Positions 7,309 through 63,809 of a DNA stretch of 64,000 nt are shown here, piece after piece (positions within the stretch are counted from its first letter, which is position 1; every line of letters starts with the position of its first letter). The notes below the pieces were generated by a model. It made no database searches, had not been told where the DNA came from, and worked only from the letters and a program-made list of their open reading frames with translations. The stretch spans positions 310,001 to 374,000 of the forward strand of contig CAJINV010000020.1 in NCBI GenBank assembly GCA_905178155.1. The letters run 5' to 3'. Made by a program: the position numbers and the translations under genes. Origin of the DNA: Amoebophrya sp. A120 (lineage: Eukaryota > Protista > Dinoflagellata).

Positions 7309-7755
7309 TCGTGTATCTAGAACGGGCGTGCGCTCCACGGCTCGGCGTCGCGATGAATCCAAATGTGTAGATTTTGCAATTGCGTCAGGTCGTGGCTTCA
7401 ACATGATAAGCCACAAAAAACAATGAATAAAATGAAAGCGGCAGAGAACAAAAAGTTGAACAACTATCTACGGAAGAGACTGCGCGTCATGATCATCTCA
7501 GCGCAGATTCAGTGCGGAAGAAGCACAACCACTCGGGGTGTCTGTTCCACCTCGCTACAGCAATTTAGTACGCATCTGCTGCGCCCGCATGAATCAATGC
7601 TTTGAAATGACGCTTATCTCCTGCACTGCTTGGTGAGAAGAGCGACATCAATCTGTCTCTTCTTCCCCCGTAACAATGAAGCGACTACTTTCTCTACCCG
7701 GTATCCATTTCTTTCCCTTTGTCCACACCGTTGTTTCTCGCATAAGAATATTACC

Positions 7756-10611
7756 ATGGCACCATCATCATCATCATTCCCATGTTGTCGACTGTCCGTG
7801 GGTGTACTAGTACATCTCTTGGTTGCATCAACAAACTTGCTTGCTGCAAATGCTCTGGACACGGTCGAAGATTCGAGCTGGACCCTATCGCACGCCGCTT
7901 ACTCCACCCCGTGGGAACTAGGTGCCCGAAGTCGTCGCGGCCTCGCAGCTTTTGAGAAGTTAGTTTTATTGCGGCCCAGCATTGATGCAGTGGACTCTCC
8001 TGCCGGAACAGCTCCAGCAACCACAGAGGATGCAACCGATAAGAACAGCGCAGAAGCCTCCGCAGCTGGCACCACGCGCAGAGAGACCAGCACCTCCGAT
8101 AAAAATTTGCAGCACAACCAGAGGCCGGAGGGGGCCGGCATCTGCCCCCGCGGGGACGCGCTGCATCCGTTTTTCCTTGCGTCGAAGGACTACTACAGGA
8201 ACGCGACACTGACCACCGTGTCCGGCAAGACAGTCGATACCGCCGCGGAAATCTACCCTTTTTTTGCCTTGGTACTGGGTCTAGAGGACGTTGTAAATGT
8301 CCGGAAATGTGGGGTGAAAGCCGCGTCCTTCCTCGCTTTGGTGGCCCGGTCGCTGAAACAATTTGGCGGTTTCGACGCCGCGGAAGGAGTGTTGCGCGTG
8401 GCCGAGAGGATTGCGAAGGCAGCCTACGGGAAAAACGGCGCGTTCCATTTCTCCTATGACTGGCTTGCGATGCACGTCGGCACGGCTTCTAATCCTGTCG
8501 GTGGTGAGAGTGATGGAGTTCCACTTGAGACGAGCAACGGTGAAAGTAGTAGTCTTTCAACACCGGATCTCAACACACAACCACGACCGAATGAATCATT
8601 GCCTCCACGGAAACTGCAAATCGAGTCCGAGCTGGTGCACTTGCTCGGACTTGGGCTGGAGGTGTCTGCCGCGGGAACGGAGTACTACGACCCCCCGAAG
8701 CCGCCGGATGGAAGCCTGTACAACTGTTACTACGAACGGGCGGAGACTTTCCGTTACGGGCAAGTGCCCAGGTTCAAAGCGATTTCGTTGTACGGCGACA
8801 GTGGTGGGCCACCACTTCCTCCAAGTGGTAGCGAAGAAAAAACGCCACGAATTGGTGAAGCGCACGAGGCAGTAGGGAGCGGGGATAGTAGTACAACTGC
8901 AGCAAACGACCCCGACCAGCAAGCATTCTCTGACCAGGCCGTGCTCATCTCCGCGCTCGGCAAGATGGATCCCGCCTTTGCGGACGCGCGGCTGCGTCTC
9001 GTACTGGAACAGTCGACGGTCGGAAATAATCTTCGAAAAGCGTTCATTAGGTTCGGAAATGATCTTCTTCTGGACAGCACGGTTTCGAACGCCGATGTCG
9101 ACGACGAGCGGGGCAGAACTCCTGGCTGTCTATTCTCGCCTGCGAAGTTCGAGAAGTCGCAGCACCGCTGGGGGCGTGCAACCGCGGAGTTGCTGCATCT
9201 AGTGGAGAATACTAACGCTTTCAACGCGGGCGCGCTGCAGGGGCAGGAAGTGGAACCGGGAACAAATAACAAAAACCGGGCGATTCCATCCCTCCGCTCC
9301 ACGTGGCAGCGCGTCGAGGCTGTCCTCGGATTTGTCCACGACCTGCGACTTCGGGACAATGAGTCCCACGACTTTGAGGACTTTGCGCTTCGCGGCTGGG
9401 GGGCGGTTTGGTTCTCCGTGCTGGAGAAGCTGCAGAAAGATTTTCAGGAGTATCAAGGTCTACAACTTCGTAGCCCCGACGAGGGGGAACAACAATTGCA
9501 GTCGGGGAAGAGAAAAGTTGAGTCCTGCGGTGTGCAACTAGAGCGGCTTCTTTTCGATGATGCTAGTAGAACAGGAAGCGAGGAAAGAATTCGCACGAAC
9601 GACGACCCTCCAGAACAACTGTTCGACCAAGAAATGTACAGCTCGTGGCCCGCGACCGGGCGACACCCGGTAGACGCTCTGTACCGGGCCGTGGCGTACT
9701 GCGCACAGGAAGGGAACGACTGCCTCGTCCCGCTGGAGGTGTCGGCCACGGTGCTCGCGGGCGGACTGGGCGGATTCTGTCCGGAAGGCTGGACCGCGGC
9801 GTTCCTGAGCTTCGTGGAGCACGTGGTAACCGTGGTGCAGGAAGCGGAGGTCCGGAATTTATACCTCGACGTGCTGGAACTGCTGTCAAGAAACAATGAT
9901 GTAGGTGCGAAAAATAATAATAATCTTCATTATGATGTCAATCTTTTACCCCTCCTCCAAAAACTCGGACAAGCTTTGGCGGGGAGGGAGACCACCTCTA
10001 AGCCTGAGGATCATGCAGTTGACCTCTACAAATTGCTCCGCGACGGGCTGGAAGAGGTGTCGCGGCAGCTTCAGGTAGTAGCGGAATTCCACCACGAATC
10101 GAAGATGTCGGTTCCCTTTGATGCCAAAGAAGGCCCCGACTTTACGCGCGGCCCCAGAACAAGTGCAGAAGCGGCGGCAAGTAGAAACAACCTCCGCGGC
10201 CACAGCTTCCCAATTTCCCGAAATCTCACCGCGGACTGGCGGCAGGACGCGTTGCGACTGCGCGTGAACAAATTGCAGAAACGGTCGAGGAATGCGATGT
10301 TTTCTGATGCCGGCGACCATGTAGACAGCAACGGGGAGGTTGACAAGAACGAGAGCAATACACGAGACGGCCTTGATCAGCATCTACTTCTGCCTGTCCC
10401 CGCATTGGAAAAGCGACTCTCACGACTGCGGCCGAAAACGACTTCCCCCGTGTACCGAACCTGGGCGCGGTTCGACTTGCCGCGGTTGCTGCAAATTTTG
10501 CTGGAGCAATTTTCCGCGTTTTCCGCCCGGCAACTGTTCGCGTCCCCGTGGCCCATCCTGACCTACGCGGGCAGGCTGTTCCGCCTGTTGGCGGAGACGG
10601 TGCCGACGTAA
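7756..10611 (+). CDS. Large hypothetical protein with a putative signal peptide
   Basis: About 951-aa uninterrupted ORF from ATG 7756; hydrophobic N-terminus LSVGVLVHLLVASTNLLAANA. Confidence 0.8.
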   Translation: MAPSSSSFPCCRLSVGVLVHLLVASTNLLAANALDTVEDSSWTLSHAAYSTPWELGARSRRGLAAFEKLVLLRPSIDAVDSPAGTAPATTEDATDKNSAEASAAGTTRRETSTSDKNLQHNQRPEGAGICPRGDALHPFFLASKDYYRNATLTTVSGKTVDTAAEIYPFFALVLGLEDVVNVRKCGVKAASFLALVARSLKQFGGFDAAEGVLRVAERIAKAAYGKNGAFHFSYDWLAMHVGTASNPVGGESDGVPLETSNGESSSLSTPDLNTQPRPNESLPPRKLQIESELVHLLGLGLEVSAAGTEYYDPPKPPDGSLYNCYYERAETFRYGQVPRFKAISLYGDSGGPPLPPSGSEEKTPRIGEAHEAVGSGDSSTTAANDPDQQAFSDQAVLISALGKMDPAFADARLRLVLEQSTVGNNLRKAFIRFGNDLLLDSTVSNADVDDERGRTPGCLFSPAKFEKSQHRWGRATAELLHLVENTNAFNAGALQGQEVEPGTNNKNRAIPSLRSTWQRVEAVLGFVHDLRLRDNESHDFEDFALRGWGAVWFSVLEKLQKDFQEYQGLQLRSPDEGEQQLQSGKRKVESCGVQLERLLFDDASRTGSEERIRTNDDPPEQLFDQEMYSSWPATGRHPVDALYRAVAYCAQEGNDCLVPLEVSATVLAGGLGGFCPEGWTAAFLSFVEHVVTVVQEAEVRNLYLDVLELLSRNNDVGAKNNNNLHYDVNLLPLLQKLGQALAGRETTSKPEDHAVDLYKLLRDGLEEVSRQLQVVAEFHHESKMSVPFDAKEGPDFTRGPRTSAEAAASRNNLRGHSFPISRNLTADWRQDALRLRVNKLQKRSRNAMFSDAGDHVDSNGEVDKNESNTRDGLDQHLLLPVPALEKRLSRLRPKTTSPVYRTWARFDLPRLLQILLEQFSAFSARQLFASPWPILTYAGRLFRLLAETVPT

Positions 10612-11258
10612 TAGGTGAATGTCCAGGTAATTGTCTGCCGACGAGGTCGACAGAGACGGTGGGCACGTTGCGTCTTTGCCATGCTTCTAGAGGAAGATAA
10701 TTCTTGTCTTCGCCGTGACGACGAGATAGGAACACGACGAGCTCCTGTGTCGCGCGAGAAAACTGATTCCACTGCGTTGAAATTTGGGGCCCACTCTACT
10801 ACTGTAGCGATAGTGAGTGGAAAAAACACGATCTTCAACATAGTACGTGAGGACTGTGGTGCTGTGACAGTTGGTACCATAGATGAATTTGTAATCCTCA
10901 ACTACTCATCGATAAAAGTAGCAGCGCATCAACGGCAAGCAATTCCGGGTATTGTACTCAATTACGTCCAAATTCATTTTACACCTAGAGGAGCAGTCTA
11001 CATATCAACGACGTCGATGGTAAGAGGATTCTTTACAGTTTTGGTTTTATCGATTTATGCTGGCCGAGTAGGTGTTTCTCCTGAGAGCGGTGCCTCCCTG
11101 CTCGTTTCCTCCGGGTGGTCTGCGACATCATGTTCCACTTGATAGCAATATGTATAGCTAAAAACAGGTGTGAAGGATCCTCCTCCTCCTTTATCGATTT
11201 AAATTCAACGTGATAATATCTTCTTCACATTGCTGCTGGACAGCACGCTAAAAAAACC

Positions 11259-12003
11259 ATGGGAAAACAAGCGAGCGCCGCGCCGGGCAAAGCTGCAATG
11301 AAAAAAAGCGCAGCAAAGCCGGTAGGGAAGGAGCGATTGAAAAGCAAAAAATCCTCGTCGTCCTCGAGCTCCGCACCAGCTCCGACGAAAACTGGTACAA
11401 ATGCCAGTAAAAACGCAGCTCGTACTACGTCTTCCGCGTCTAGTGCAAAAAAAGATCCAGCACAGAAAAATACTACTATCCCCGGCGCCGTGGGCAATCT
11501 GATCGAGGCAAAAATGCGGGAAATGGTCACCAAGCGCGGCGCCGAAAAAACGTGCTGACCCTCGGAGATTCCGCGAGCGCTGTTTGCAAGTTCGGACTGG
11601 CGCGGCCTGATGGCGCAGACCCGCGACATCGCGGTCCGGCTGGCGAAGCAGGGCGTGCTTATGGATTGCAAATATGTCTGGGTCTGGAAACTTGTGATGC
11701 AAGTCCGTGAACAATAAAGTGCTCTGTAATGCGCCGCCAAGCATGACAAGTTTTTTCGTAATTCTGTGCTGCGTATTTCGCACGAAAAACTGCGCTTTTG
11801 CATGACAGGCAAGAGGACCTCTTGGTGGCGACGCAATACAGAGTGCAGAGTCATGCTAGACTAGCATGACAACTCTCGCAATCTTCCAGACCCAGACATT
11901 TTTGCACTTGATAGTGCTGACGATTGAACAAAAGGGAAAGCAGATCACGGTGGGAAACGCGGAGGAGATCAAGGGACCGGTGCGATTGCGGTCGAAGGTG
12001 TAA
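11259..12003 (+). CDS. DUF3253-family protein with an in-frame UGA (putative selenocysteine), 2 exons
   Basis: Reading through TGA 11556-11558 and removing the introner gives KRGAEKTC-U-PSEIPRAL..DWRGLMAQTRDIAVRLAKQGVLTIEQKGKQ...IKGPVRLRSKV*, matching DUF3253 motifs TxCPSE, WRxLM, QKG and GPIRL. Confidence 0.85.
11660..11913. mobile_element. Introner family A (254 bp)
   Basis: About 30-bp TIR (TGCAAATATGTCTGGGTCTGGAA / TTCCAGACCCAGACATTTTTGCA); perfect 5-bp TSD GTGCT. Confidence 0.95.
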
Positions 12004-12121
12004 AACTTTCTTTCATTAAAGTACTTGCGCAAGACAAGTTTAGAATTCGAAATCCAACTCATCTCGCAGCCGATCGGTTGTTCATACGGAGGTCTAGTCA
12101 GAGTCAGCTTTTAGTGTGATG

Positions 12122-12190
12122 CCTCGACATAATTTTGACGACAACTACCTCAACCATCGAAAGGTGCAGAGTCGAGATATGTCAACGAGG
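12122..12190 (+). promoter_or_regulatory. Candidate SECIS-like stem-loop in the 3' UTR
   Basis: CCTCG/CGAGG and GACATA/TATGTC outer helices; TGA-N13-AA-N22-GA spacing; CATC-GAAA-GGTG mini-helix. Helix II is imperfect and the first base is U rather than A. Confidence 0.45.
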
Positions 12191-13035
12191 TTGATTTTTT
12201 TTGCAGCGGAAATCGATGCAGGTGCAACTGATGGATTTTTGTTTGGATGAGTCTTTTCAGCTCGTGAACAGCGCGAATATGCTGGTCGGTTGCCCCGTGA
12301 AGAAATCGTAGTCATTTTGGATGGAAAACCACACGAGAAAACTCTCCTCATGCTTTGTTCGAGATGAACATAATATAATATTTCATCGAAAAGGAGCACA
12401 GACTCGAGGTGAGAGTTCTGTCCTGTTAATTTTTGATGACCTCGGATGTTGAGAGAATTTAGCTCAGCGCGCGTTCTCGGATAAGAAGGCAGACGAGCCC
12501 ACCGCACTTTCGGGAGAGAAGAGTGATAATTCGCAGAGATTTATTGATGGTTCTGCACCTATGAAAAAAACCAGCGGCCCCAATTTTTGTTTTCACGGTA
12601 GCAAGAAAAGCTTTGCTTTTGAGTTGATGTTTATGGACAAACAGTAGACATGTAGAAAGATATCCAATGGGTCGTCGTGTCGCGGGATGAAATGAACACG
12701 ACTTTTGAAATGTGTAGTATAGGATAACTAAGGTGGATTGACGTCTTCGTGAAGAACCTTCGTCGGGGGAGCTCTAGCGTAGTCGTTTGAAGATACAACT
12801 GTTGGTCGTAGTCGCGCAGAGTGAAGACAAACCATGACCTGTAATTTCGTTTCAAAAAACCTTCTAGGCCTTTTGAGAAGCTGCAGGTACGACAGCAGTA
12901 AGGAAGTCCATAGCAAGTAGGTATACTACGCTAATTGTGGTCTTTACGCCTGTGTCCGTTCCTTGTTTAAAAATGCATCCCCACTTGTATTAAAAACCTG
13001 TATCACAACATCAACATCTTACTAAAACTGCAAAA

Positions 13036-15218
13036 ATGCCTCTCGCCGGCTCCACGACGCCGCTCGCGTCGGTGTTCGCGAAGACGGTACGTTTCGCGGT
13101 GCGCGTCGGCGAAAAAGTTGCCGACTACCTGGAGCAGCAAGACGATCGCGACCAAGGAAGGGCCGCGGTGGAGGTGACATCAACTACAGAGACATCTTCG
13201 CGAAGTGGTAGTGGAATTTCTGGAGTAGAAGTTCCTCGTTCTGCAGCAGTAACGTGTGACCACAGCACGACGACCAGTACAACAACCGAGGAAATAAACG
13301 AGTGTAGCCGGACCACGAGCATTTCGACAGCTACCACAACGGCTACATCGCCGACGTCCGAGACCTCTCTCTCGACCTCTACTACTTTTGGAGACCTTGA
13401 CGTCTGCTTCTCCCAGCAAGAATGCGCGATCTGTCTCCGTTCTTTGGAAAAGGGCGCGCTGCTACGGACGCAGTGCGGACATTGGTACCACGCAGCCTGC
13501 GGGATGCAAGCCTGGCAGCGCCGGCCGCTTTGTCCGCTCTGTCGGGAACCGATAGATTGCGTTGCCGACAGTGTTGACACGTGCACGCCGGTCACGTTTG
13601 AGGATCTTTGCAGCGCAGGCAACTACTGCACCGGGGACCGGACTTCACAGAACAGTGTGGCGGCGAGACCGTATCTATGTTTTGCTTGGCTTTTTTTGCA
13701 TGAAGTAAGTAGTCTTTGCATAATGATCAATTTTGGTTCCGAATCAATTAGATCAAGGGTACTTGTTCTTAAAGCCATAGCGAAGAACGTCCGATAAAAA
13801 AAACACAGATCCTTCCCGACAAATCCCGCGGATTACTTTGCCGGTTCGGATTCCGACGCATTGCGGCGTGTTTCGCAGGCCATCACACGCCTAAGCCTCG
13901 TGGACAATGCGCTTGCAGTGCGGCCTCGCGACGCTGGGGGGGCATCGTATTCGTTTGATTCATTTTTTTTTTGGTGCTAGTATGATGTATGTTAGGAGGT
14001 AGCCAGTTTCATCCACCATGTTTTCGGTTTCCTCGATACAAGGCTGGCTTTGAATGATTATGATCCCAAATAGTTTATTTTGAACAATAAAGCTGCCATT
14101 CTGAAATCAGTCGTTCTCCCGGCGACGACGCCACGTCCGGCACCCCGACCGGCGAGGAACGGCAGCGGCAGCAAGACGAATCCGTCCGTGGCATCCTCAA
14201 CACCGTGCCCATAGATCCGCACGTGCTGGCCCGGATGCGGCGCGAGAACCGCAGACTCGGAACGCAGCCGGCTTTTTCCAGCATGCTGCGCGGCGGGGTC
14301 GAAAATAACGCTCACGGTCATTCGCGCGCACCGTCCACGGGCTGCATTTACGCCGATCTGTTCCTCGCGGACTTGGGAATCTGGTCTAATTTGAACTACA
14401 GCAGCGCGAACAATGCAAATGCTTCGTCCTCCTCTAGTAGCAGCACGGCGGCAGCCCTGTCGACGAGCCCGTCGGTCACGGACCTGAACACGATGGTGGA
14501 ACAAGGATCTTCAAACCCGAATTCACCCACTACGACTTTTCGACGGGGGGAACAAAGACCGGAAGTGACGGACACAGCAGCCACAGCACCTTCAACATTA
14601 TTCTCCACCACGACTTCTGGTAGCGCCACCTCTACCTCCACCAGCAGAGATGATTCCTCGCCCACAAGTAGGTTGCAGCAGAACCTGAACCGCGCAGCGA
14701 ATCTTCCGACAGCTAACACTACGACAAATTCCACCTCCACCAGTGCCACCACCGCGGAGGAGCTTTTGGAAAACGGGACGTTGAACCTACCACCTCTCAC
14801 CGAGTACCAGCACTCGCTGCTCCGCGGCGTGTGCCTCGTGCAGCTGATCGACGAGCTGTTTCAGTACGCGTCGGTCGGGCACTACGAGGCGGTGTCCGCG
14901 ATTTTGAGCAGTGGGTTTGTGGACGTGAAGTCCGCGAAGGACGTCTGTGGCAACACGATCCTGCACTTCGCGCGGAACCTGGACATTGTGAAGCTGTGTG
15001 TCGAAACCTACCACGCCGACGTAAACGCGGTAAACGACGCGGTGTGGAGTCCGCTGCACTGGGCCGCGGAATGCGAAAACCCCGCCTTGTGTTGGACGCT
15101 GCTCCAGTACGGCGCAGACCCGACGGTGTATACGAATTGCTCCAGGACCGCCAGGGATCTCGCCACCTCCGACGCCGTGCGGTCCGTCTTCGACTCCTTC
15201 TCCTCGCGGTCGGCGTGA
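13036..15218 (+). CDS. RING-H2 zinc finger plus C-terminal ankyrin-repeat protein (putative E3 ligase), 3 exons
   Basis: CAIC...CGHWYHAAC...CPLC; ankyrin motifs GNTILHFA and WSPLHWAA; exons 13036-13670, 13809-13946 and 14111-15218 joined by phase-compatible GT-AG introns. Confidence 0.8.
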
Positions 15219-20222: not shown

Positions 20223-23161
20223 ATGGGAGGCTTCCGATTCTTGTCGCTGATTAAGCCCGTCATGGTGCTGCTGCCGGAGGTGGCGCAGCCGGACCGACGG
20301 ATCCCGTTTAAGGAAAAGCTGCTGTGGACCTCGATTTCCCTCTTCGTTTTCCTGGTGTGCTCACAAATACCGCTGTACGGAATCATGTCCTCCAAGCTGA
20401 GCGATCCCCTCTACTGGATGCGAGTACTATACTTACGACTGTTTGATGTTGCAACAGTGTGTTTGGAGCTATTTCTCGCGTCGTGCTTTGGTTAGTACCT
20501 ACGGTGTCTCACGCAAGAGCTGCAACAGCACGTCCACGTGCACGGCGCCGCGCGCGGAGGTGTTGCAGCAGTACCATAATATGTACGCGCGAGAAGCAAC
20601 GAAAAGGGGATGGACAAAATGTCCTCGTCGCACCGATGTACTGTGGTTTCAAAACGTGAAAATAAACCCAACTGTAATATAGGTACTTATGGCTTCAAAC
20701 CGTGGGTCTTTGATGGAGCTGGGTATTTCGCCGATCGTGACTTCCTCTATGGTGATGCAGTTGCTCGCGGGTTCAAAAATTATTGACGTGGACCAGACCC
20801 TCCGCGAGGACCGAAATTTGTTCAACGGCGCACAGAAATTGTTCGCTCTGCTGATCACCTTCGGAGAAGCAACAGCGTACTGATTTACTACTGTTTTTTT
20901 GCCTGCTTCAAAACCAACAAATGTTATGTACGTGCTGCTTTATTATTATTTTCCGGTATGTACAACGGGGCTGCGTCTGCGTTCCACGTGAAAAATGAAT
21001 TCCAAATAATCAGATACGTGCTTTCTGGGATGTACGGGGATGTCCGCGAGCTTGGTGGTGGCAACTCCATTCTGATCATCATCCAGCTTTTCTTCGCCGG
21101 CGTCGTGGTGCTTCTGCTGGACGAGCTTTTGCAAAAGGGCTACGGTCTGGGCAGCGGAATTTCGCTCTTTATTGCAACCAACATTTGCGAGGCGATTGTG
21201 TGGAAAACCTTCTCCCCGACAACCATCAACACCGGAAAGGGAACCGAGTTCGAAGGTAGGGGTTATGTGGATAAATTGGGTTTTCTTTGGCTTGCAGAAA
21301 TAAAACAAAGAGTGGCGTGCTACGTCTATCTTCGATCATGCAAGAACGGGGGTTCCTTCCGGGCATCGTGCTGTTGATTGAAAATGTCTTCAGGTAGGAA
21401 ACGATTGTTCTCTACAACTATTACTATCAGGTGCTATCGTTGCGCTGTTCCACCTGGTTTTTTCGAGGTCCGACAAATTCCAGGCAGTCAGGGAAGCCTT
21501 CTACCGACAGTCTGCACCAAATCTGACCAACGTGTTTGCAACCGTTCTGGTCTTCCTGATTGTCATTTACTTCCAAGGTAAGCACACGGAAAATCTTCTT
21601 TCTTGAAAAAGAAATCGAATGCGGATGTCGAAAAATGTGTCATGCAGACCTCCGATGGTATTTTCTCTTTGTGTAGCACCAAATAAGCGCATGACAAATA
21701 AATGCACTAGCCCGTACAACGACCACTACAGGCTTCCGCGTCGATCTCGCGGTGAAGTACCAGAAGGTGCGCGGACAGCAGGGCAGCTACCCGATTAAGT
21801 TGTTCTACACGTCCAACATTCCAATCATCCTGCAAACCGCTTTGGTCTCCAACCTGTACTTCTTCTCCCAGCTGCTGTACCGCCGATGGAAGAGCAACAT
21901 GCTGGTATAGTGAAGTGTGCATGACATATCGGATACTTTGTTGACGGTTTTGAATCACAAATATGCAGCATTAGACCACACGGAGATGAAACGGAACAGT
22001 CAAAATTATGCTCTGCATGGTAGTGTTCCGCATGAGAAACCTGTTTTGCTTTACTGTTTGTGCATGACAAAACAACAGGTCAACCTCCTCGGACAGTGGC
22101 AGGACCTGGACTACGGCGGTCAGTCTATCCCGGTCGGAGGCCTCGCTTACTACATCTCCCCGCCTAACAGCTTCTCCGACATCTGGGTACTACAAACTTT
22201 TTTTCTGTGCATGATCACCAGCCGGTCCGTGCATGGCAGATGTACTATGAGCTTTCCAGTGTAGAAGTTCATTGCATGACAAACACGCAAGCACCGCATT
22301 TCTGTTTAGCATGACAAACGCGCCGCAAGACCATTTGGCTACTTCCTATACATCCTACAAATTCATCACCGCCGGTCAATTACATAAAAAAACAGGTCGA
22401 TCCCATCCACGCTCTGTTCTACATCTCCTTCGTGCTGTGCAGTTGCGCTCTGTTCTCTAAGACCTGGATCGAGATCTCCGGCAGCATATGCATTGCAAAT
22501 ATGTCTGGGTCCGGAACAAGCTTGTGATGCTAAAGTATGGATGAGGCTTGTGCTTTCAAGTACAGCCGAGCATGACAAAATTACTTGACACCGTCTGTTG
22601 CTATGTAGCACGCATCACAAACTGCGTCTTTGCAAAAGTAAACGCTTTTGCTGGCTAGGCAACACAGATTTGTCACAGGAATGCTAGACATGCAACACAA
22701 GTTCTTGCACTGTTCCAGACACAGACGTGTTTGCATTCGATACAGCAGCCCCCGTGACGTCGCCAAACAGCTCCGCGACCAGCAGCTCTTGTTTAAGGGG
22801 TACAGGGAAACCAGTCTTATCAGCGTGCTGAACCAGGTAAGGATTTTTTTTCCTGTGGTTGGCGCATCGGAATTTTCTATCTGGGGTAACATCAGATGCA
22901 AAAACTTTCCTTTTTCATCTTGTTATGCCTGTTGCGCTGTAAATTTACATGTTCAACATCACTCCCCACACCGAAAATTCTAAACAGTACATCCCGACCG
23001 CGGCTGCCTTCGGTGGTATGTGCATTGGTATGCTGACCGTGGTGGCGGACTTCTTGGGCGCGATTGGCTCCGGGACCGGTATCCTGCTCGCGGTCACCAT
23101 TGTGTACAACTACTTTGAGCTCGTCTACAAGGAAAAGGAACAGGGCAACTTGCTGTTCTAA
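20223..23161 (+). CDS. SEC61A: Protein translocon subunit Sec61 alpha, 9 exons
   Basis: [86 protein letters not shown]; introns 20424-20682, 20877-21013, 21256-21430, 21578-21731, 21905-22078, 22187-22395, an introner at 22487, and 22837-22987. Confidence 0.98.
20428..20681. mobile_element. Degenerate introner forming GT-AG intron 1 of Sec61 alpha
   Basis: 254 bp; TATACTTAC...GTAATATA ends; flanking 5-mers AGTAC/GGTAC. Confidence 0.55.
22487..22742. mobile_element. Introner family A in Sec61 alpha (non-canonical intron)
   Basis: TIR ..TGCAAATATGTCTGGGTCCGGAACA / TGTTCCAGACACAGACGTGTTTGCA..; TSD CAGCA; removal restores the conserved [13 protein letters not shown]. Confidence 0.95.
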
Positions 23162-36399: not shown

Positions 36400-38655
36400 A
36401 TGTACCTGGTTTCGTTTTTCTGCGCTATCCTCCTGATCGGGATCTGTGTCCCGAAATGGTCCTCCGAGACGGAGTCGAAATACAGCGGGGACCGCGACAT
36501 TCGCTTATCAAATGCAAAAATGTCTGGGTCTGGAAGAATGCAACTTGTAATGCGTATTTCAGAACACGGAAAAGTCTGTCATGCATACGTAGCAGAAGCT
36601 CCCACTTTTTGTCGGCAAAATAGGGGACTTGTCATGCGGATTCGGCATTGCAGAAGGTTCTCGAAACCTGTGCTGCTAGAGCTTCCATGCCAGACCTTCT
36701 GTGTCATGCAAAAACAGCATGACTCTTCCAGACCCAGACATTTTTACATTTGATATCGCTACATGATCTGTCATTCGACCTGCCTTTTTGCCGGCGAGGT
36801 GTTCGAGAAGGAAGCGATGCGAAACCAGACCGCCAGCACGTTGCAACGAAACCACCACTTTCGGGAGCTTTTCAGCACCGTGCGCAGTTACGCGTTGGCC
36901 CCGCCGTTGAAGAAGAAACAGAACTACTCGGTTTCCACCCACCCGCCGCAAGCGCCGACCTTCGTGCGGTCCCAAGTGGAACACGCGCGGCACCGGGGAA
37001 CCCACGATTTGCGGGGCACGGCGGCGCGGTTCGGCAACCAATTATACTTCCAGCTGCGGGAAAATTGGAACACGAAAAGCACGGAGAACGCTGTTACAAT
37101 CGACGCCGAACGGCTGAAAACGGGGCAACTGCGGGATAACAAGGCGGAGATGCTGATGGTAACGGGGATGCGGGCGGCGGCGGATTTCGTGCAGAAAAAT
37201 ACTTTGGACGAAATTCGGAAGAGCAGCTTATTCATGTTCGAAGCTCTGGGGATCAGCAAAAGCACGTGGAAGGATTATAACGAAGACGCTGGTCCCTGGT
37301 CCGTTCGGCGGGAACTAGGGAAGAAACTTTTGTATCTTTTCGATTTCTTCCTCAACTTGTTTGGCGACTTCGAGCATTTGCTACCCTTCACGCTGCAGGA
37401 GGAGTGCGCGTACCGGTGCAGCCAGGACAATGTGGACACGCGGAAAAAGGGGAATGAGGTTCTGGTCCAGTACTACGGCAAGTGGGGCTTCAAGCGTCTG
37501 TACGGGGCGCAGGAATTTTTTGCGGCATTGTTCTCGTTGTTGAACTTTTTCCTTCACCCGGTGTATTTCTGGTCGAGTTTACGGAAGATAAAGGAAATCA
37601 TACGGGTTACAAGCAGGATAAACAGTGGAGATAGCGAAACTATTAACACTTTTGCACACAACAAGAACACCTCTCGCGCTTTCCAAAAGGCGAGAACTTC
37701 CCTGCTTGGCCACCACACACTCGTCGCGGGCTTCGGGTTCTTTAGCTCGCTTTCCTGGGCCGCGAGCTGTTTATTTCACGCACGGGATCGGGATTTCACG
37801 ATGATGCTGGACTACGTGTTTGTGCAGTGGATGGGCGGGTGGGCGCTGCTATCCGGTTTAATGTACCGAAGCGTGGACGAGCAATGGGGTTTGACGTTCA
37901 AAGCCTTCCTGAAAACGACCACGTTCTACTTTTGTCTCATCTTCGCAGGCATCCTCGCCCACCAGACGCAGGTAATCTTCCAGTCGAGCAGACCCGATAC
38001 CGGAAAGCACATGGTGTTTTGCGTGGGGTTGGCGTCGTCGGGGACCTTAGCGTACTTGAGCGCTTTACTGCGGAAAAACTGTCGGAGCGCGGTGTCGAAA
38101 GTCGTGCAGGGTGACTTGATGACCTGTTGTCGAGGACGTCGCGGGAATAACGAGGAGGAGAACTACAGCGTTGAAGCGGAATCTTCTTTGTCGGGGAGGG
38201 ATGAAAGAAAGTCAGCTCCGGGTGGCGAGGAGCCTAGTCCGAAAAAAGAAGACAAGATTGTCACCTCCTCGACACCAGCTCCAGCGTCGACCTCAGAGGG
38301 CAAGAAACTGCAAGAGTCGACGGCAAGCACGGCGACAACGCCCTCCCTTCTCGCCCAGCTCCAGGCCTATTGGGTTTCCTCTCCGGAATTCTTTCTCGCG
38401 ATTGCGGGGGCGTACCCGCTGTTCCTCTGTTTGGAGCTTGCCGACTTCCCGCCGTACGAAGATTTACTGGACGCGCACGCGCTGTGGCACTTGGGCAGTG
38501 TACCCATTCAATTTGGCTGGTACAAATGGTTTTCGAAAGCGGAAGAACTGGTGTTCCTGCCGGAATTTCTGAAGCAAAGCGGTGCTGCTCAGCAAGCAAA
38601 ACTGCGAAAAGACTGCCCAGAAGATAATGGAGTAGACCGTGCGAAGCAGGAGTAG
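36400..38655 (+). CDS. PGAP3: Per1/PGAP3 GPI lipid-remodelling phospholipase A2-like protein, 2 exons
   Basis: SGDRDIRYMIC..C; ECAYRC; QYYGKWGFKRLYGAQEFFAALFSLLN; FHARD..T..LDY; LELADFPP..LLDAHALWHLG. Confidence 0.93.
36506..36755. mobile_element. Introner family A (250 bp)
   Basis: Near-perfect TIR TATCAAATGCAAAAATGTCTGGGTCTGGAAGA; TSD TCGCT. Confidence 0.95.
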
Positions 38656-43763: not shown

Positions 43764-46700
43764 ATGAAATCATTGGCACCGCCAACGATGTCGGTGATTT
43801 TTCCCTGGTCCTCCGACCGGGTCACACTTGATGTCCTCCGGTTGTTCATCGCCCTCCACACCGCTCTCTACTTCTTCCCCACTCTCGTCAAAGCGAGGAC
43901 CTTCCCGGATCGGTCGCAAAGCACGAGCGGGCGGGAGTTTCTCCTTCCCCCGGGGGCCGGGGTCCCGTTCGTCGAGAGCCAGAACCCCTTGGCGCGGACC
44001 GCGTTACCCTGGAACGAGGGGACGTACATGTCCCGGTACGTATGCAGCGACTTTTTGTCACCTGGCCGTGCCGTGGAAACTGAAAGTGTCGCTGAGCAGG
44101 CGCAGGCCTGCGGGCTCCTGCTGGCCAGAAACTTTACGGTGAAGGTTCATGAGAACAATGTAGATCGTGCTCCCGCCTCTGCTCCTGCAAGCAACGATGT
44201 TCAACATCTGGATGAAGTAAAAAAAGCTGTTCTAGGAAGGTCAAGTACCGGCTGGACTCGATCCCTTTCGGACGACAGCACCGCGCCTTCAGAAGTAGAA
44301 CAGCACGTGGGTCGCGACGTCTTCGCAAGCGATAACTCTGGCGGTGCTCCTGGTGGAGCATCCTCGTCTTCGCAGAACAACCCTAAAGCAGAATTGTTTT
44401 CATCTTCACTGCAAGAAGTCGTGCAAAAACAAGCAACAGCCTCCGAGAACAAATATCACCTCGATGATCTCGACTTCTACGCCGCCGCAAGCCAGCATGA
44501 TGCTGCAACTATGAGAAACACCTCTGACGACTTTGACTGCTGTTGGGCGAATGAAGTACTGGATCGCGCTCGAGCTACTCTTGGAGATGGGTATAGAAAT
44601 CACGATCCTTTATTTCAGAGTGATGTTTGCAGGAACGTCACGCGAGAGGGGGACCTACATCTGTCGCGGGGATTTGACACGGACCCCAACGTCGATGTAG
44701 TTCAGAGCCTGTTATGCTCCCAGTGGAAGCAGGTGCAGCGGTACTGCGTGGACCATTATGGGGAAGATTTGGACCTGGACAGCATCAAATGCAAAAATGT
44801 CTGGGTCTGGAACAAAGCAACTTGTCATGCTAATAGTCTGAATCATGTAAAAATTTGTGTTGCATGATTACCAAAAGCTGTCCACTTTTGACCTAATCGA
44901 GAGGCAGCTTCTCATGCAGGATTGGCATGAGAGAACTCTCACAGAATCTATCATGCTATGTCCTACATACCAGACCTCATGGGTCATGGAAAACCTGCAT
45001 GACAAGTCTGGCACTCTTCCAGACCCAGACACTTTGACATTTGATAGGGTCCGATGGCAGTGCCGCGGAGGAAAAGGAGCAGTATCAAAAGGAAAAATCC
45101 CCCCTCCCCATATCAGAAGGAAGTTTCTGATGCTGGATTTGCGTAGACAAATCAGCTTTGTATTGCAGAGAGGCACTGCGGGCAGATCTCCGGGCTAGAT
45201 AGGGGCGTATGTGTCTAGTTGTTCAGCATGGCAAACGGCTGCCCTTTAGGCCCAACAGCATGACAGATCGCCTCTATAATGGGGCGGAAGCTCGTCCGGT
45301 GGGGAGCTACCTCCCCACCTCCCCCCAGCACTGGGGAGGTACCTCCCCACCCTAGGAAGGCACCTCCCCACACATGGGGAGGCACCTCCCCAGGGTGGGG
45401 AGGTGGGGAGGTGATACGTGGGGAGGTGATTCACACCATAACCAAAAGTATCGTACTCGTAGTAATTGCAGTCATGCATGACAAGTCTGGTTCCTCAGCT
45501 TATTCAGCATTACAAATTCCATTTTTCCTTCTGGAAAAATTTGTAATGCTATTTTTACTAGTGGTGTTCAACGTCGTGTTCGAGCATACTATAACCACTG
45601 CGTGGACCATTATGGGGAAGATTCATCAAATGCAAATATGTGGTCTGGGCCGGGAAGATTGCAACTTGTGATGCTGCATTTAGATTCCAAAAAAATCTGT
45701 ATTGCATGAGCAGCAAAGGGAGTGCAATTTTTGCTACGCGGAGAGGGCATTTGTCATGTGGAATAGGCATCAAGAAGCCCTCAAAAAATCTGTGACGCTA
45801 GGGCATGCGTCACAGACTTCATGGCTCATGCAAAACGTGCATCAGAATCTTCCAGACCCAGACATATTTGCAATGCATAAGATTTGAACCTGGACAACAT
45901 CAACGCGAGCAGTGACGAGCACCCCGGGAAGCAAGAGGTCGCAGGGTCGGGTGTCGGTGCTGATGTGAAGAGGTTCTCCATTTTCACTCCGAGAACGAAT
46001 TATTCTACTTCGGGAACAGCTGCTGCGGTTGTTCACGAAAAAGACGGAGCAGCGTCGCAAGAAGGGTGTACAGTAGAACCACCAGGAGAACCGAATTCTA
46101 GCAACTACTCGGATCATCATCATCATCATCATCGTCCTGCTGGTTTTCAGTACAGACCTTTTAGCACCACGAAAACCACGGAAGATCCAGACGGGCGAAA
46201 TCGCCCACCTTTGCTGTCTTCAACAGATGAGCTCGACAAGACGTGTTCATCTAAAAGCTCGTGCAATCTTCGGGAAACTCCGGAACTCCAGCTTTCTTCC
46301 GCTAGCACGGCGTCCACGTTGAGCAGTAGCTCAAGAAACAACTACAACTCGCTATTCACGGGGGCCAATCATTACGTTGAGCCGCCGATACTAGTAGCAC
46401 GAGGGAAGGCGCAAGCGCATGAAGACACAACTCTAGGAGGGTTGTCCCCATTAGCCCTGCCGCCGAGAGGAGGAAGCGCGACGCCCGCTGCGATTATTTC
46501 GGTGCCACATTTCCGTCTGGACGACGTAGACGACGAAGACGATGAGGATGATGTCAGCCAGGCAGATTCCTGCGACACCATCACCTTTATGCTCGACCGA
46601 GAAGAGGACGGAGAACCACTGTGCGATGAGGAGGCGCAGCGCGACGTGTCAAGAAGTGCTGATAACCTCAGAACTTCTCAGATGCGCATGCGTCACATGG

Positions 46701-56955: not shown

Positions 56956-59900
56956 ATGCTCTACAAGAGGCGTTCTTCACCTTACTCTCTCCGTCCACCG
57001 TTCTGTTGCGTTGCGGTCTCGCTGCTGCACACGTGGTCCCGGGGGCGCCCGGGCGTCGTGCCGATACGGGCGGACTACGGTTCTGATGAGTTGAAGGAGT
57101 CCCTGTTTTTCGCGGAAGACAATGAAGGGTCCTTCAATCCCTACGACCTCCCGCGCACCGACCACGATAGGGAAGACGATGTGGGGGAGGAGGAGAGACC
57201 ACATGATCCACCAGACGAGGTTCTACCAGAGGAAGCCGAACAGCCTGAGACGGAGCCACCGCCTAACAATACCTCAGCTGAAGAGGAGGAACTCACCGTG
57301 GTCCTGCCGGACGGCGAAACGAGCGGAATAGAGGGCGACGGACCACATGAGCAAGAACATCCCGCATCGTCAAACACTGTCGACGACTACCAGCCTGCGG
57401 GTGACGACTACTTGTCCCAACTGGTCGAGCCGATAAATTCCAGAAGAAACCAAGAGGACTTGTCCGAAGAGTCGGAAAACTGCGCCGAGAACGACGACGA
57501 GCAGGTCTTCCGGCAGTATTTATTGCATTTCTACGAGTCCAACTACTGGGGCGCGCAGCAGTCGATTTTGTTTCACAAAATCCGCGGGTCGCACGCGCTG
57601 CACTGTCCCTCCGCGGTGCTGGGGACCATGTTGTTGAAGATGGAATCCTCCGTGTTCCGCCACGACGCGGACGAGGTGATCCCGGACCAGAAGGGGCTGT
57701 ACGCGACGTATCAAGTGCAAAAGTACTTACTTATCGTACTGGTACTAATCGCTGTCAGGCATGACAGATCTAGTTCTCTACGGGATTTCGCATCACAAAT
57801 TCCATTTTTCCTTCTGAGAAAAATTGTGATGCAATTTTCACTAGTGCGAAGATGTTTTTGCGATGCATACGACGTACTTCCACGACAACCTGTCCCGGAT
57901 CAACAGAAACTGGCCGCTGGCTATCATACAGAAAAAAGCAGGCAGGGCGTATTTGTGATGCATACAATGAATTGACCATAGCGTGCTGTTAAGGCTACGC
58001 AATACAGATTTTTCTGCGTGTTCGTGTATGTTTTTGCATTACAAATATAGCCACCTGCTGGCTTTTTTGTGCGGGATACTGGCGGAGGGCTACCAGCGGG
58101 TGCTGGATTTAGAAGAGGCGTTGGTCGAGAAAAAGGAGTACAGCATCGCGATGATCATGAACTTCTGCTCCGTCAAGGACCGGTTCGGCGAGGCGCACGG
58201 GCTGGATTGGCTCGCGGAAGGCAGCGACATGCTGGAGGAGGACCCGGATCTGCTAAGGATAGGTATCGACTTCTGTCGTTGTCCTGCATTTTCATTTTGC
58301 TAGCTCGTCTGTGCATGAGAGGTAGAGGCCGCTGTAAAAACTACTGTGATCAATATGGGTTGATGTCTGTAGATCAGGAGAAAACAACTTCTCAGTAGTA
58401 GTTTTCACCACTAAACACTCTCAGTTGACGTCCACATCTACATCGTCGACCTGCCCAAGTGCAATGGACAGCGCTCGCACTTCGCTCACATCGAGCGGGT
58501 CGTCAAGTCGCTCACCGTCGAGCGCTACCAGGGGGCGCCAGACCGCGAGGAGCAGAGCTCGTACTTTCGCTACATTGTCGACCACTACGACGATATGGCG
58601 GATTTCGTCATCTTCGTTCACCCAGACGCGCCGGAGCACCAGGGAAAGGAGATGCGCGCCTTGGTCGAGGCACTGCGGTTGCTGAAAACCAAGTCGGCAC
58701 TGGTAAAATTTTTGGATAGATTTTAGTTGTTTTGCGAATGGAAATCTTCAGAGGTGCAGCAGTTTCCTCTCGGACATGATAGGGAATAAAACCATGCAGC
58801 TCAAATTATTTTTGTGTGAGCGCGCCAAGAACTCGTCTGCTGGTCATTGGTCGCACTATCTGGTTCTGATCACGACCGTTGGCAAATCGACTGCAACACC
58901 CTCCAAACGATGATCGCGACCACCTCCTGCAGGCGTATCGCACCATAGAGTACTACCCGCTGGCCATGCAGTACATTCGCAGCCCTCTTTATGGAATGCG
59001 AGGAGTTCATTTGAGTCTTTCTCCTTGCAGCTGATGTGTACAAAAATTTAAAGTTCATTGTCTTGTTGTAAGTATTGCCCCCGAGGAGCAGTTTTCTGGG
59101 AGCGAAACGGTGAAAACGCAAGCAGGGCATGGTAATAGATAACTTTTTAACCTGTTCTAGCATGAGGAAGGTTCAAGAAATTTCCATGCTCCATACTTTC
59201 CGCACCTCTCGGTCCCTATCCAAGAAAAAAATATTGTAGGTGTAAGTTTTTTGGAGGAACAGCATTACAAATTTGTCTGGCATGACAGCAAAAAGCTGTC
59301 ATGCGCAGATAGTACGTGAAAACGCCCCCTGATGGACCCTGCGATGCATGCCAAGCATGACAGACGCAATCATCTTGCATGTTGAGCATCACAAATTTAC
59401 ACTAACAGCGTTCTTTTCTTGGATAGTCCCGGGCCATTCACTACTACGACGCGGGGGACCGCGAAGACGACTGGCCGGTATCAAGTGCAAAAATGTCTTT
59501 GTCTGGAAGGGTTGGAACTTGTGATGCAAACTCTGGAACACGCAAAAATTTGTGTTGCATGAGCGCCAAAAGCTGTCCATTTCTTGGCACGCAAGTAGGA
59601 AGTTTCTCATGCGGGACAGGCATCATGAGGCGTGCTCAAAATAACCTGTGATGCTTTTGCCTGCATCAGACGCCATTTGCGTGATCCGAAATATGCAAGA
59701 CAAATCTCGCAATCTTCCAGACCCAGACATTTTGCATTTGATAGACGGTGTTCTGGAACAAATTGTTCCTCGACCGGCCCAATGGCGTTTGCCCCCTCGG
59801 GTGCCGCTGGAACGACGAGATGGACCACGATTTTACCTTTTACATCTATCAAATGCAAAAATGTCCCGGTCTGGAAGAGTGCAACTTGTGATGCTGAATT

Positions 59901-60362
59901 TGGATTCTACAAAAATCTAGGCTGCGTGAACAGCAAAAGAGGTCCAGTTTGTGCCACGGCGAGGTGGCATTTCTCATGCGGTGTAGGCATCAGGAAGCCC
60001 TCACAAAATCTGTGATGCTAGAGCATGCGTCACAGACTTCAGGAGTCATGCAAAGTGTGCACGACAAACCTGGGCCTGGCATCCTTCCAGCCCCAGACAT
60101 TTTTGCATTTGATAACATCGCCAGCCAAGCGATCGTCCGTTCGGACCGGATCCGGATTCACCCACGAGAGTGGTACGGGAGCTTCTTCCAGCAAGATTTG
60201 ATCTGGTTTTCGAACAATTCCGGGCTGCTGGAGGCGGCCTGGCCCGTGATCATGGGGGAGGAACTGACAGAAGTGTCGCGGGAAGCGGATGCGCGGTTGC
60301 CGCTGGCACTGAAGTTTGACATCTTGACGAAATACAGCTACGGCTGGAACGACGTGATCTAG
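56956..60362 (+). CDS. DUF3431-family protein, isoform using 3' module 1
   Basis: REEQSSYFRYIVDHYDDMADFVIFVH; ASQAIVRSDRIRIHPREWY; SGLLEAAWPVIMGE; frame restored across 5 introners and other introns. Confidence 0.8.
57709..57869. mobile_element. Introner family B (161 bp)
   Basis: TATCAAGTGCAAAAG...TTTTTGCGATGCATA; TSD CGACG. Confidence 0.9.
57922..58078. mobile_element. Introner (157 bp)
   Basis: TIR TATCATACAGAAAAAAGCAGGCAGG / CCTGCTGGCTTTTTTGTGCGGGATA; TSD CTGGC. Confidence 0.88.
59217..59425. mobile_element. Introner family D (209 bp)
   Basis: TATCCAAGAAAA / TTTTCTTGGATA; TSD GTCCC. Confidence 0.92.
59479..59743. mobile_element. Introner family A (265 bp)
   Basis: TIR; TSD GCCGG/GACGG. 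Confidence 0.9.
59847..60114. mobile_element. Introner family A (268 bp)
   Basis: TIR; TSD ACATC; the empty site in paralogous module 2 has a single ACATC. Confidence 0.95.
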
Positions 60363-62139: not shown

Positions 62140-63809
62140 ATGACGACGGCGCTGGTATCCAGCATGATTTCGGACGAGATTTCTTTCGCCATCGCGGCGG
62201 GAATCGGGGTCTGCACGCTCGCCTATCTTCACATGCGGATGACCGGGGGGATGAAAAATCAGGACAAGAAGAATCATGTCGATGCGGCGCAAGAACCTGT
62301 ATTGCTGCAGGACGAGGAGCGGCGGGCGGAGCAGCATGCGAATCTTCCTTCTGCGAGGAAAACTACCACGACGAACAAGAACCCTGAAAGAAGATCTTCG
62401 TGGTTCAGTGACAATGTCATGGAGCAAAGAAATTCATTTAGTAAGGGCGATGCAAGTAGTTCTTGCAGCAATGCCGATGCTCGGGGCTGCACTGAGACCA
62501 AATCTCGCCTCAGTGCCTTTTTCTCATTTTCCGGAGAAAGTGCTTCTACCACATCACACGTTTCGACGGCGAGCGAAAAGACACCAACGACTTCCACGAG
62601 TGCGGCGACGAGCAAGGAATCAGTGGGAGGTGGAACAACTACAGCATCCGAGCAGGATCCTCCACTGGATATTAAACCACGGTGGACCAGTTTTTTCTCC
62701 GCAGCACCCGCTTCCGGTTGTACTTCTAGTTCTATGAAGATCGCAACCTCCTCCCGACGTCCGGAAGAACTACAACACAATGACGTCGATTGCGGCGCCA
62801 GCACGTTTTCGGAGCAAACCGAAGACGACGAGGATTCGGACGAAAGTGTAGCTTCCAGCACGCTCCTCTACTCCACAGGCGGGAATAAAGCCAGCCATTT
62901 ACTCTTACCCGATCTCGGGTTTCGGCTCGAAGTCGGCGAACTATCAACTGCAAATATGTCTGGGTCTGGGAGATTGCGAGATTTGTCATGCTAGTCTGGC
63001 ATGACTCTGGGATTTGTATTGCGTGGCAACCAAGAGCTCCTCTAGCCTGTCATGCAAACACGCAATTTCTCATGCGGAATACGCAACAAAGAAGCATGAA
63101 AAAACTTGTGATGCATGGCGGCGCATTACAGTGTCCTTATTATTCAGTGACCTGCATCACACTTTCCAGACCCAGACATTTTTGCATTTGATACGAACAC
63201 CAAATGTACCACGGTAGGATGCAGTTCACGGTCCGCCTGCTCGAGTGGCGCGACAAGAGCCCGAACGAGCAAGTCACTCTCGCAAAAGCCACCCGTTCCT
63301 ATTCCCAGTTCAAAAAGCTGCACAAAACGACCAACAGCAAGCAGCACACGCCGTTTCTGCGCCGCCTGCTGTTCTCGTCCCACGTCAGCAAGGTGCAGCA
63401 GCGGACGGAGTGCCTGCAAAAGTTCTGCGCAAGGTTGCGGGTGTCAGACCGGAATCTGAAGCTGCTGGCGGCGTTCTTGGCTTTGCGGAGTGGAAGTGAG
63501 GAAGAGACGCGGCTCCTCGAAGCGTTCGCGAAGCAAGCGGGTGCGGAAGAATTTTTCTGCTTTGCTGTTCATCTTTCAGGATGTCTTTATTGTCTTGCTC
63601 TTGCGGAAGTTCTGGGTTGTAGTCTTTGTCCTGTCCACGTGGCCTGGACTATTGCTGCACCTCCCCTGCGCATTTTGCTTCTGAAAGTGTACTCCTTTGC
63701 TGTCGTCCACTGCCGCATCATGAAGAAAGCAAGAATGTCCTCGGCGTCACACATACTTACGTGCTTACTTGCTAGTGCATCTGTGTTCGTTGCTCTAGCT
63801 CGCGGCTAG
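62140..63809 (+). CDS. N-terminally anchored protein with a PX-like domain; 3' end uncertain
   Basis: TM segment ISFAIAAGIGVCTLAYL; after introner removal EVGEHQMYHGRMQFTV..TRSYSQFKKLHK..VQQRTECLQKFC..LLAAFL. Confidence 0.65.
62942..63193. mobile_element. Introner family A (252 bp), inverted relative to the copy at 11660
   Basis: TIR; TSD CGAAC. Confidence 0.95.

Follow-up and report, generated by a model that had tools for sequence, protein, structure and literature searches.

A gene of Amoebophrya sp. A120 that encodes a DUF3253 (PF11625) protein carries an in-frame UGA at codon 100, and this codon is in all probability read as selenocysteine (Sec). Comparison with related sequences makes it very likely that among marine microbial eukaryotes the family is a widespread selenoprotein, listed once as a prediction in a supplement and neither named nor characterised in the literature that we searched. 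The gene lies on the forward strand of a 64,000-nt stretch of genomic DNA, which was analysed as a whole and is called the window below. As far as is known, Sec residues are nearly always catalytic, so that the Sec codon would identify the active atom in a family that spans bacteria, algae-like protists and some animals.

The coding frame starts at ATG 11259, the first ATG after 11163. Coding exon 1 (11259-11654, codons 1-132; its boundary slides by 5 nt within a direct repeat) begins with a low-complexity basic arm of 77 amino acids (11259-11489; 16 K/R versus 2 D/E, pI 11), which we infer to be a possible nuclear-targeting or DNA-binding tail. The N-terminal half of the DUF3253 domain follows (11499-11654): exon 1 matches positions 3-56 of the Pfam profile with an E value of 7e-12 and 45.8 bits (gathering cut-off 22.1). 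Within this half, the TGA (11556-11558) occupies the conserved Cys column of the family and stands right behind a Cys codon (11553-11555), so that the frame reads T-C-(stop)-P-S-E. Coding exon 2 (11914-12003) encodes the C-terminal wing of the domain and ends with TAA 12001-12003; its frame matches Pfam positions 58-80 (E 0.0035), and the two exon halves are therefore complementary. With 259 nt removed, the gene has 161 codons followed by the TAA, and the TGA is its sole internal stop. A preceding reading of the letters alone (the sequence-only reading) had proposed the DUF3253 identity, the continuation through an introner to TAA 12001 and an intact downstream half, and all three hold.

The same structure was found in an 874-nt contig of run X1, which covers 11163-11654 and 11914-12295 with zero letter differences and thus has the 259-nt skip and retains the TGA; X1 is classed as RNA by a tool's guess only, and a DNA allele that lacks the intron would give an identical contig. 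This contig includes part of the 5' UTR (11163-11258, with no ATG inside) and 3' UTR sequence (12004-12295). The depth of X1 was zero at 12311-12700. Three raw-read RNA runs (X9-X11) gave 94, 3 and 0 reads at the locus, all on the repeat and none on the exons. Short X1 contigs pile up at 11114-11227 (summed depth 93-170 versus 22), which suggests that a further repeat lies within or ahead of the 5' UTR; no second copy of this segment was found within the window. On the same strand, the gene is accompanied by a 1001-codon frame without a Pfam match (7606-10611), a gene for a RING-finger protein (12994-13797) and one for an ankyrin-repeat protein (14091-15218), none of which has a link to the DUF3253 finding.

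The sequence between the exons is an introner element of 254 nt (11660-11913) with terminal inverted arms of 38 nt (11660-11697 and 11876-11913; 82% complementary). It is bordered by a 5-nt direct repeat on the forward strand that resembles a target-site duplication (left copy 11655-11659, right copy 11914-11918), and none of the six equivalent cuts places a GT-AG pair at its ends. Two more full-length copies, each with its own direct repeat, are present in the window at about 22484-22742 and 62940-63186. Partial matches to the same introner family, with shared inverted ends, were seen near 36503-36755, 44784-45047, 45625-45881 and 59479-60115. Amoebophrya introners have been described as non-canonical repeated introns whose two ends carry inverted repeats, with a direct repeat of 3-5 nt at the exon boundaries (Farhat et al. 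2021, PMC7789003). The element reported here shares the inverted ends, the direct repeat, the repeated copies and the exact removal with them; the described motifs measure 8-20 nt, whereas the arms here extend over 38 nt at 82%, and nothing essential differs.

A word-based protein search with the half domain of the window returned no match; a word-free search returned 144 homologues. At the column of the TGA, 139/144 have Cys and 5/144 have Trp (P0074, counted as a Cys row, is a doubtful match). The UGA thus aligns to the conserved Cys of its homologues as a Sec/Cys pair. The Trp forms are likely UGA codons that gene callers translated with code 4, to judge from the Trp-rich tails of read-through in 2/5 of them and from P0338, which has W wherever the DNA of metagenome locus L055 has TGA. 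Database proteins with Trp at Sec positions include P0038, P0042, P0070, P0126, P0135, P0335 and P0338. Such code-4 artefacts could be mined for other hidden selenoproteins. The family has been overlooked because its genes in the databases are either cut at the UGA or carry Trp there. Cys-form DUF3253 proteins occur in some animals (Mytilus, Homarus).

A metagenome scan with a pattern anchored on TGA found 95 loci, 74 of which are DUF3253 genes, with >60 bits in a comparison with a profile built from Cys homologues. The remaining 21 were chance matches with <30 bits and were dropped. Because the pattern asked for TGA, all matches are TGA forms, and the scan gives no TGA:TGY (Sec:Cys) ratio. 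In the window, the same pattern matched once, compared to 0/100 shuffles. At 80% identity, the 74 loci group into 24 clusters. In 1/24 clusters (L112), a further stop lies within -20/+40 codons of the TGA, probably owing to an intron. Downstream of the TGA, pN/pS was 0.07 among the 8 variants of the largest cluster and 0.32-1.01 in three small clusters with few changes. The coding sequence past the TGA is thus conserved, as judged from the two Pfam matches in the window and from the low ratio in the largest cluster of relatives. Several of the loci are eukaryotic, since they adjoin genes such as DDX20, ADIP, STI1/HOP, EXS and Fumble. The TGA pattern matched 0 viral contigs, and among 301 proteobacterial genomes a DUF3253 match was found in 31, with an internal stop in none. 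Caulobacter vibrioides is one of the bacteria with a match. An internal control comes from 6/24 clusters, in which an MGMT domain upstream of DUF3253 has a second TGA at its catalytic Cys (P-(stop)-H-R-V), a position absent from the search pattern; the MGMT domain was confirmed as PF01035 in 5 of these 6, the sixth (L104) being cut by the contig end.

We also compared Sec and Cys forms on a tree (160 rows, 84 columns, quick search) with the motif columns masked and with rows shorter than 70 aa, P0074 and L112 left out. Six of the 157 branches were starred, and the relatives of the window's protein formed no resolved group. The Sec rows require 13 changes, of which at least 2 are forced; a single origin and repeated origins of Sec both fit.

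Decoding of the UGA as Sec would be helped by a SECIS-like hairpin in the 3' UTR. Using a custom, SECISearch-like pattern scan, we located a SECIS-like element at 12116-12195, 113 nt past the stop, in a pattern that 2-4% of shuffles match too (4/100 and 7/200 shuffles of the same UTR). It has a G-UGA core (12116-12119), an unpaired AA (12131-12132) 11 nt after the core and a 3' GA (12193-12194), with 10-11 pairs in helix II and an unusually long apex. Over the whole window, a relaxed pattern gave 19 matches in 128 kb, 3 of them with AA. Rfam reported no SECIS in the window region, nor in 20 homologous loci, and the unconstrained fold of the UTR was no better than that of shuffles (z 0.23 and -0.47).

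Behind the homologues, the scan covered up to 250 nt from the first downstream stop, and 22 of the 24 clusters were testable (2 were too short). With the AA requirement dropped, a SECIS-like hairpin was present behind 13/22 clusters versus 7/440 shuffles; this final pattern had been loosened after the sequences were inspected, two looser versions having followed a strict scan. The identical pattern matched 2/22 reverse strands, 1/18 upstream windows and 0/20 distal windows. With AA required, the counts were 6/22 clusters versus 3/220 shuffles, and in the first strict scan, over 500 nt, 4/21 versus 5/84 shuffles. Twelve of the 13 hairpins lie 19-67 nt past the stop. No hairpin was found behind 9/22 clusters, and an alignment of the 13 hairpins failed to line up the 3' GA. 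Seven of the 13 have CC, CA or AG in place of the apical AA and keep the RUGA/GA core and helix II (L062:1316-1384, L073:797-878, L083:864-932, L087:934-1015, L097:718-788, L104:648-727 and L108:1817-1887). By the custom pattern and by its enrichment behind homologues, a SECIS-like element is present in the 3' UTR, as had been noticed at the outset. Together with the TGA shared at the Cys column by other DUF3253 genes, this agrees with the selenoprotein reading first made from the letters of the window.

With regard to the decoding machinery, no tRNA was found within the window. A tRNA-Sec and the selenoproteins selT, selM and selO have been reported in another Amoebophrya isolate (PMC6394959). 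In a supplementary table of PMC7789003, the entry "selenocysteine to protein" (5 genes) is marked D, which we take as detected, for both A25 and A120.

To approach the function of the domain, we made a structure model of a Sec-form homologue, L096 (88-row alignment, pLDDT 94), in place of the window's own spliced protein. The model matched PDB 2ns0 (Foldseek E 5e-8; Z 14.0, rmsd 1.9, 85 residues aligned), followed by Z-alpha and other winged helices at Z 8-9.4; Fur, CymR and MarR-type regulators are among the fold neighbours, and the 50 matches listed included no other type of fold. The homologue P0003 matched 2ns0 with an E value of 3e-16, and the ESM Atlas returned DUF3253 clusters only. As modelled on the homologue, DUF3253 folds into a winged helix. 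Such a fold does not in itself imply DNA binding, as cullin and kleisin domains score alike. In the L096 model, helix 2 is directly preceded by a loop that holds the Cys/Sec. Boxes of the C-P-x-E type cap a helix, whose dipole lowers the pKa of the thiol.

The domain is frequently fused to others. Among the 114 longer homologues, counted by hand with UvsE checked separately, 17 are fusions to repair enzymes (8 UvsE, 7 photolyase-related, 1 photolyase and 1 Fpg-type), and P0077 is a further Fpg fusion. The six Sec-form clusters with the second TGA (6/24) are fusions to Sec-MGMT. Fusions within one enzyme class probably trace to a single event; the classes of repair partner that recur are at least five in number (MGMT, UvsE, two photolyase classes and Fpg). 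Other partners among the 114 include GNAT (5), DUF2256 (4) and single others, and the fusions without a repair link include GNAT, pseudouridine synthase, trypsin-like and UCH domains. In the metagenome, L050:1374-2894 (minus strand) encodes a Sec-form DUF3253 fused in frame to S4 and pseudouridine synthase domains, and L062:1395-2507 (minus strand) one fused in frame to a trypsin-like peptidase. At L055:1374-2822 (minus strand), a GNAT frame continues across one more in-frame TGA, the third, and joins that of MGMT-DUF3253; this TGA may be the stop of the GNAT gene or another read-through codon. In bacterial neighbourhoods, for which 118 selected frames were scanned, a repair gene lies within 1.5 kb in 5/31 loci (MGMT 2, UDG 3). 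The window's own DUF3253 protein has no PF01035 or ogt match and is fused to no other domain.

On this basis we consider it an even call that the winged-helix protein binds DNA and uses its selenol as a nucleophile on damaged DNA. MGMT, Ada and HMCES provide analogues for a covalent DNA nucleophile. Splicing would take out the introner and leave the in-frame UGA at the conserved Cys of the domain. The basic arm and the winged helix would hold the protein on DNA. The Sec/Cys, which begins helix 2 in a capping-box position, would accept an alkyl group or react with the aldehyde of an abasic site, just as the Sec/Cys of MGMT accepts a methyl group. By forming an Se-S ring with the selenol, Cys99 would protect or recycle it. 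Carried to the family as a whole, the proposal is more tentative: DUF3253 may be an unrecognised DNA-repair domain in which a lesion (an alkyl phosphotriester or an abasic-site aldehyde) is caught covalently on the helix-capping Cys, upgraded to Sec in marine microbial eukaryotes and, in some, joined to MGMT as a two-Sec fusion that parallels the two-nucleophile bacterial Ada. Given the winged helix, and given that most partners with a known function are DNA-repair enzymes, a role as a nucleophile on DNA lesions is no less likely than thiol redox.

Thiol redox is what the sequence-only reading had proposed for the vicinal Cys-Sec pair. In the reading closest to this view, which we regard as somewhat unlikely, the UGA encodes Sec, but the pair would switch reversibly between redox states or sense peroxide, as part of a DNA-binding regulator or scaffold in the response to damage and light stress, with no reaction of its own with lesions. 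Thioredoxin reductase has a vicinal Cys-Sec as its redox centre, and Cys precedes the TGA in 71/74 metagenome loci and 22/24 clusters. The regulators among the fold neighbours and the rhodanese and GST genes that recur beside bacterial DUF3253 copies also fit a switch. The partner enzymes cover the repair of UV, oxidative, alkylation and deamination damage, and fusions over several unrelated lesion types fit a regulator too. The presence of the Cys in the Sec forms is thus borne out; as a functional pair, however, it fares less well, because most of the family does without it. Cys precedes the column in 40/144 homologues and in 1/114 of the longer ones, 109/114 of which have I, V or A instead, and cluster L055 has Ala-Sec. 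A second thiol is therefore not needed, and the first Cys, absent from 113/114 longer homologues and from one Sec cluster, is unnecessary for the core job of the family. Moreover, the T-C-U-P-S-E protein has no further Cys and no CxxU or UxxC redox box of the kind found in thioredoxin-type selenoproteins, and MGMT, the Sec-bearing fusion partner, uses its Cys as a one-shot nucleophile.

It is improbable, in our judgement, that the UGA encodes Sec in a domain whose job is unrelated to DNA damage (for example RNA, protein or metal binding), with the repair fusions as passengers. Such a role would suit the partners that dominate by number. DUF4385, an uncharacterised domain linked in the available literature text to Dps only (PMC9425974), is the commonest fusion partner (56/114 longer homologues), and DUF599, likewise uncharacterised, is the commonest bacterial neighbour, within 1.5 kb in 11/31 loci (L005, L007-L009, L012, L013, L015-L017, L024 and L029). 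The pseudouridine synthase and trypsin-like partners of Sec forms would suit it as well. Against it stand the fusions with at least five classes of repair enzyme, in addition to the MGMT and UDG neighbours.

Far less credible is a TGA that acts as a true stop or arose as a recent nonsense mutation, leaving a pseudogene or a 99-aa product. The silence of Rfam on SECIS is in line with such a stop, as are the relatives that gene callers end at the UGA, with 54-aa and 59-aa products on record. Against it, the TGA is shared by 24 divergent clusters with intact and constrained downstream halves and SECIS-like hairpins, a second TGA stands at the Cys of MGMT, and the spliced contig restores exactly the remainder of the domain.

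That UGA is a general sense codon here is least credible of all: although UGA is read as Trp in one isolate, Amoebophrya ex Karlodinium veneficum (PMC6394959), where UGA, UAA and UAG are widely sense, and as Cys in Euplotes, the four longest ORFs of the window (633-1416 codons each; 3995 codons in total, with 48 TGG, 66 TGC/TGT and 164 CAA/CAG) can be read without a stop in the standard code, one ORF of the window translated by that code has 100% identity, over 433 residues, to a protein labelled Amoebophrya sp. A120, Trp would be unlikely at an invariant Cys, and many homologous genes end in TGA. Since these ORFs were chosen as stop-free, the weight of this evidence lies in their length, and it agrees with the original view that UGA has not been reassigned globally.

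With the Sec reading, the eukaryotic selenoproteome gains a winged-helix family, one absent from the readable names of a 42-family algal catalogue (PMC7539508). A covalent capture of lesions, if true, would make DUF3253 a selenoprotein family that is widespread, has a fold other than that of thioredoxin and acts on DNA by chemistry other than redox, and would tie the use of selenium to the repair of DNA damage in marine plankton and parasites. Small bacterial Cys homologues, one of them with a crystal structure, allow a direct test.

The literature search found no paper mentioning DUF3253 or PF11625, and no novel unicellular selenoprotein with a DUF. The "hypothetical proteins 1-3" of Ostreococcus described by Lobanov were checked as possible DUF3253 members and belong to other families in the available text of PMC2375036. 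In the 42-family catalogue, the comparison went by the readable family names, which include "Hypo", "Delta1" and "MDP" and no DUF (PMC7539508). A 2026 review of prokaryotes lists MDP with one Sec, and its available text has no "3253" (PMC13188914).

The closest precedent is an unnamed Seblastian candidate on chromosome 12 of Ostreococcus lucimarinus (index 15, hScore 7.56) in the supplement of Mariotti et al. 2013 (PMC3753652). By its printed alignment it belongs to the same family, with C-U-P-S-E, a bacterial Cys homologue and a 3' UTR SECIS of grade A. It is one of 186 automatic predictions in that supplement, unvalidated, with "redox box: no" and without the name DUF3253 or any distribution, fold, fusion or function; a term search of the main text of PMC3753652 did not find it. 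The candidate supports the Sec reading independently. It also makes a DUF3253 selenoprotein less new than first claimed, since a C-U-P-S-E member was already in print, if unnamed.

MDP (Sec-MGMT) resembles the Sec forms of DUF3253 in having Sec at the catalytic Cys of a DNA-repair protein, and is fused to them in the six clusters described above. The window's protein differs in that it is without a PF01035 domain with P-U-H-R-V. For the algal MDP, the available text of PMC7539508 mentions neither a further domain nor another Sec. Z-alpha and other winged helices (ZBP1, ADAR1, Fur, Rrf2/CymR) have three helices and a beta wing in common with the modelled domain; identity is 7-14% in the ten best matches, and the Z scores of 8-9.4 may reflect the common arrangement alone. 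The nearest structure is the DUF3253 protein of PDB 2ns0 (Rhodococcus RHA04536), to whose Pfam family the window's protein belongs by a score above the cut-off and whose fold the modelled homologue shares. Bacterial members of the family have Cys at the decisive position, whereas the gene in the window has a UGA there, together with a preceding Cys, a basic N-terminal arm and an introner.
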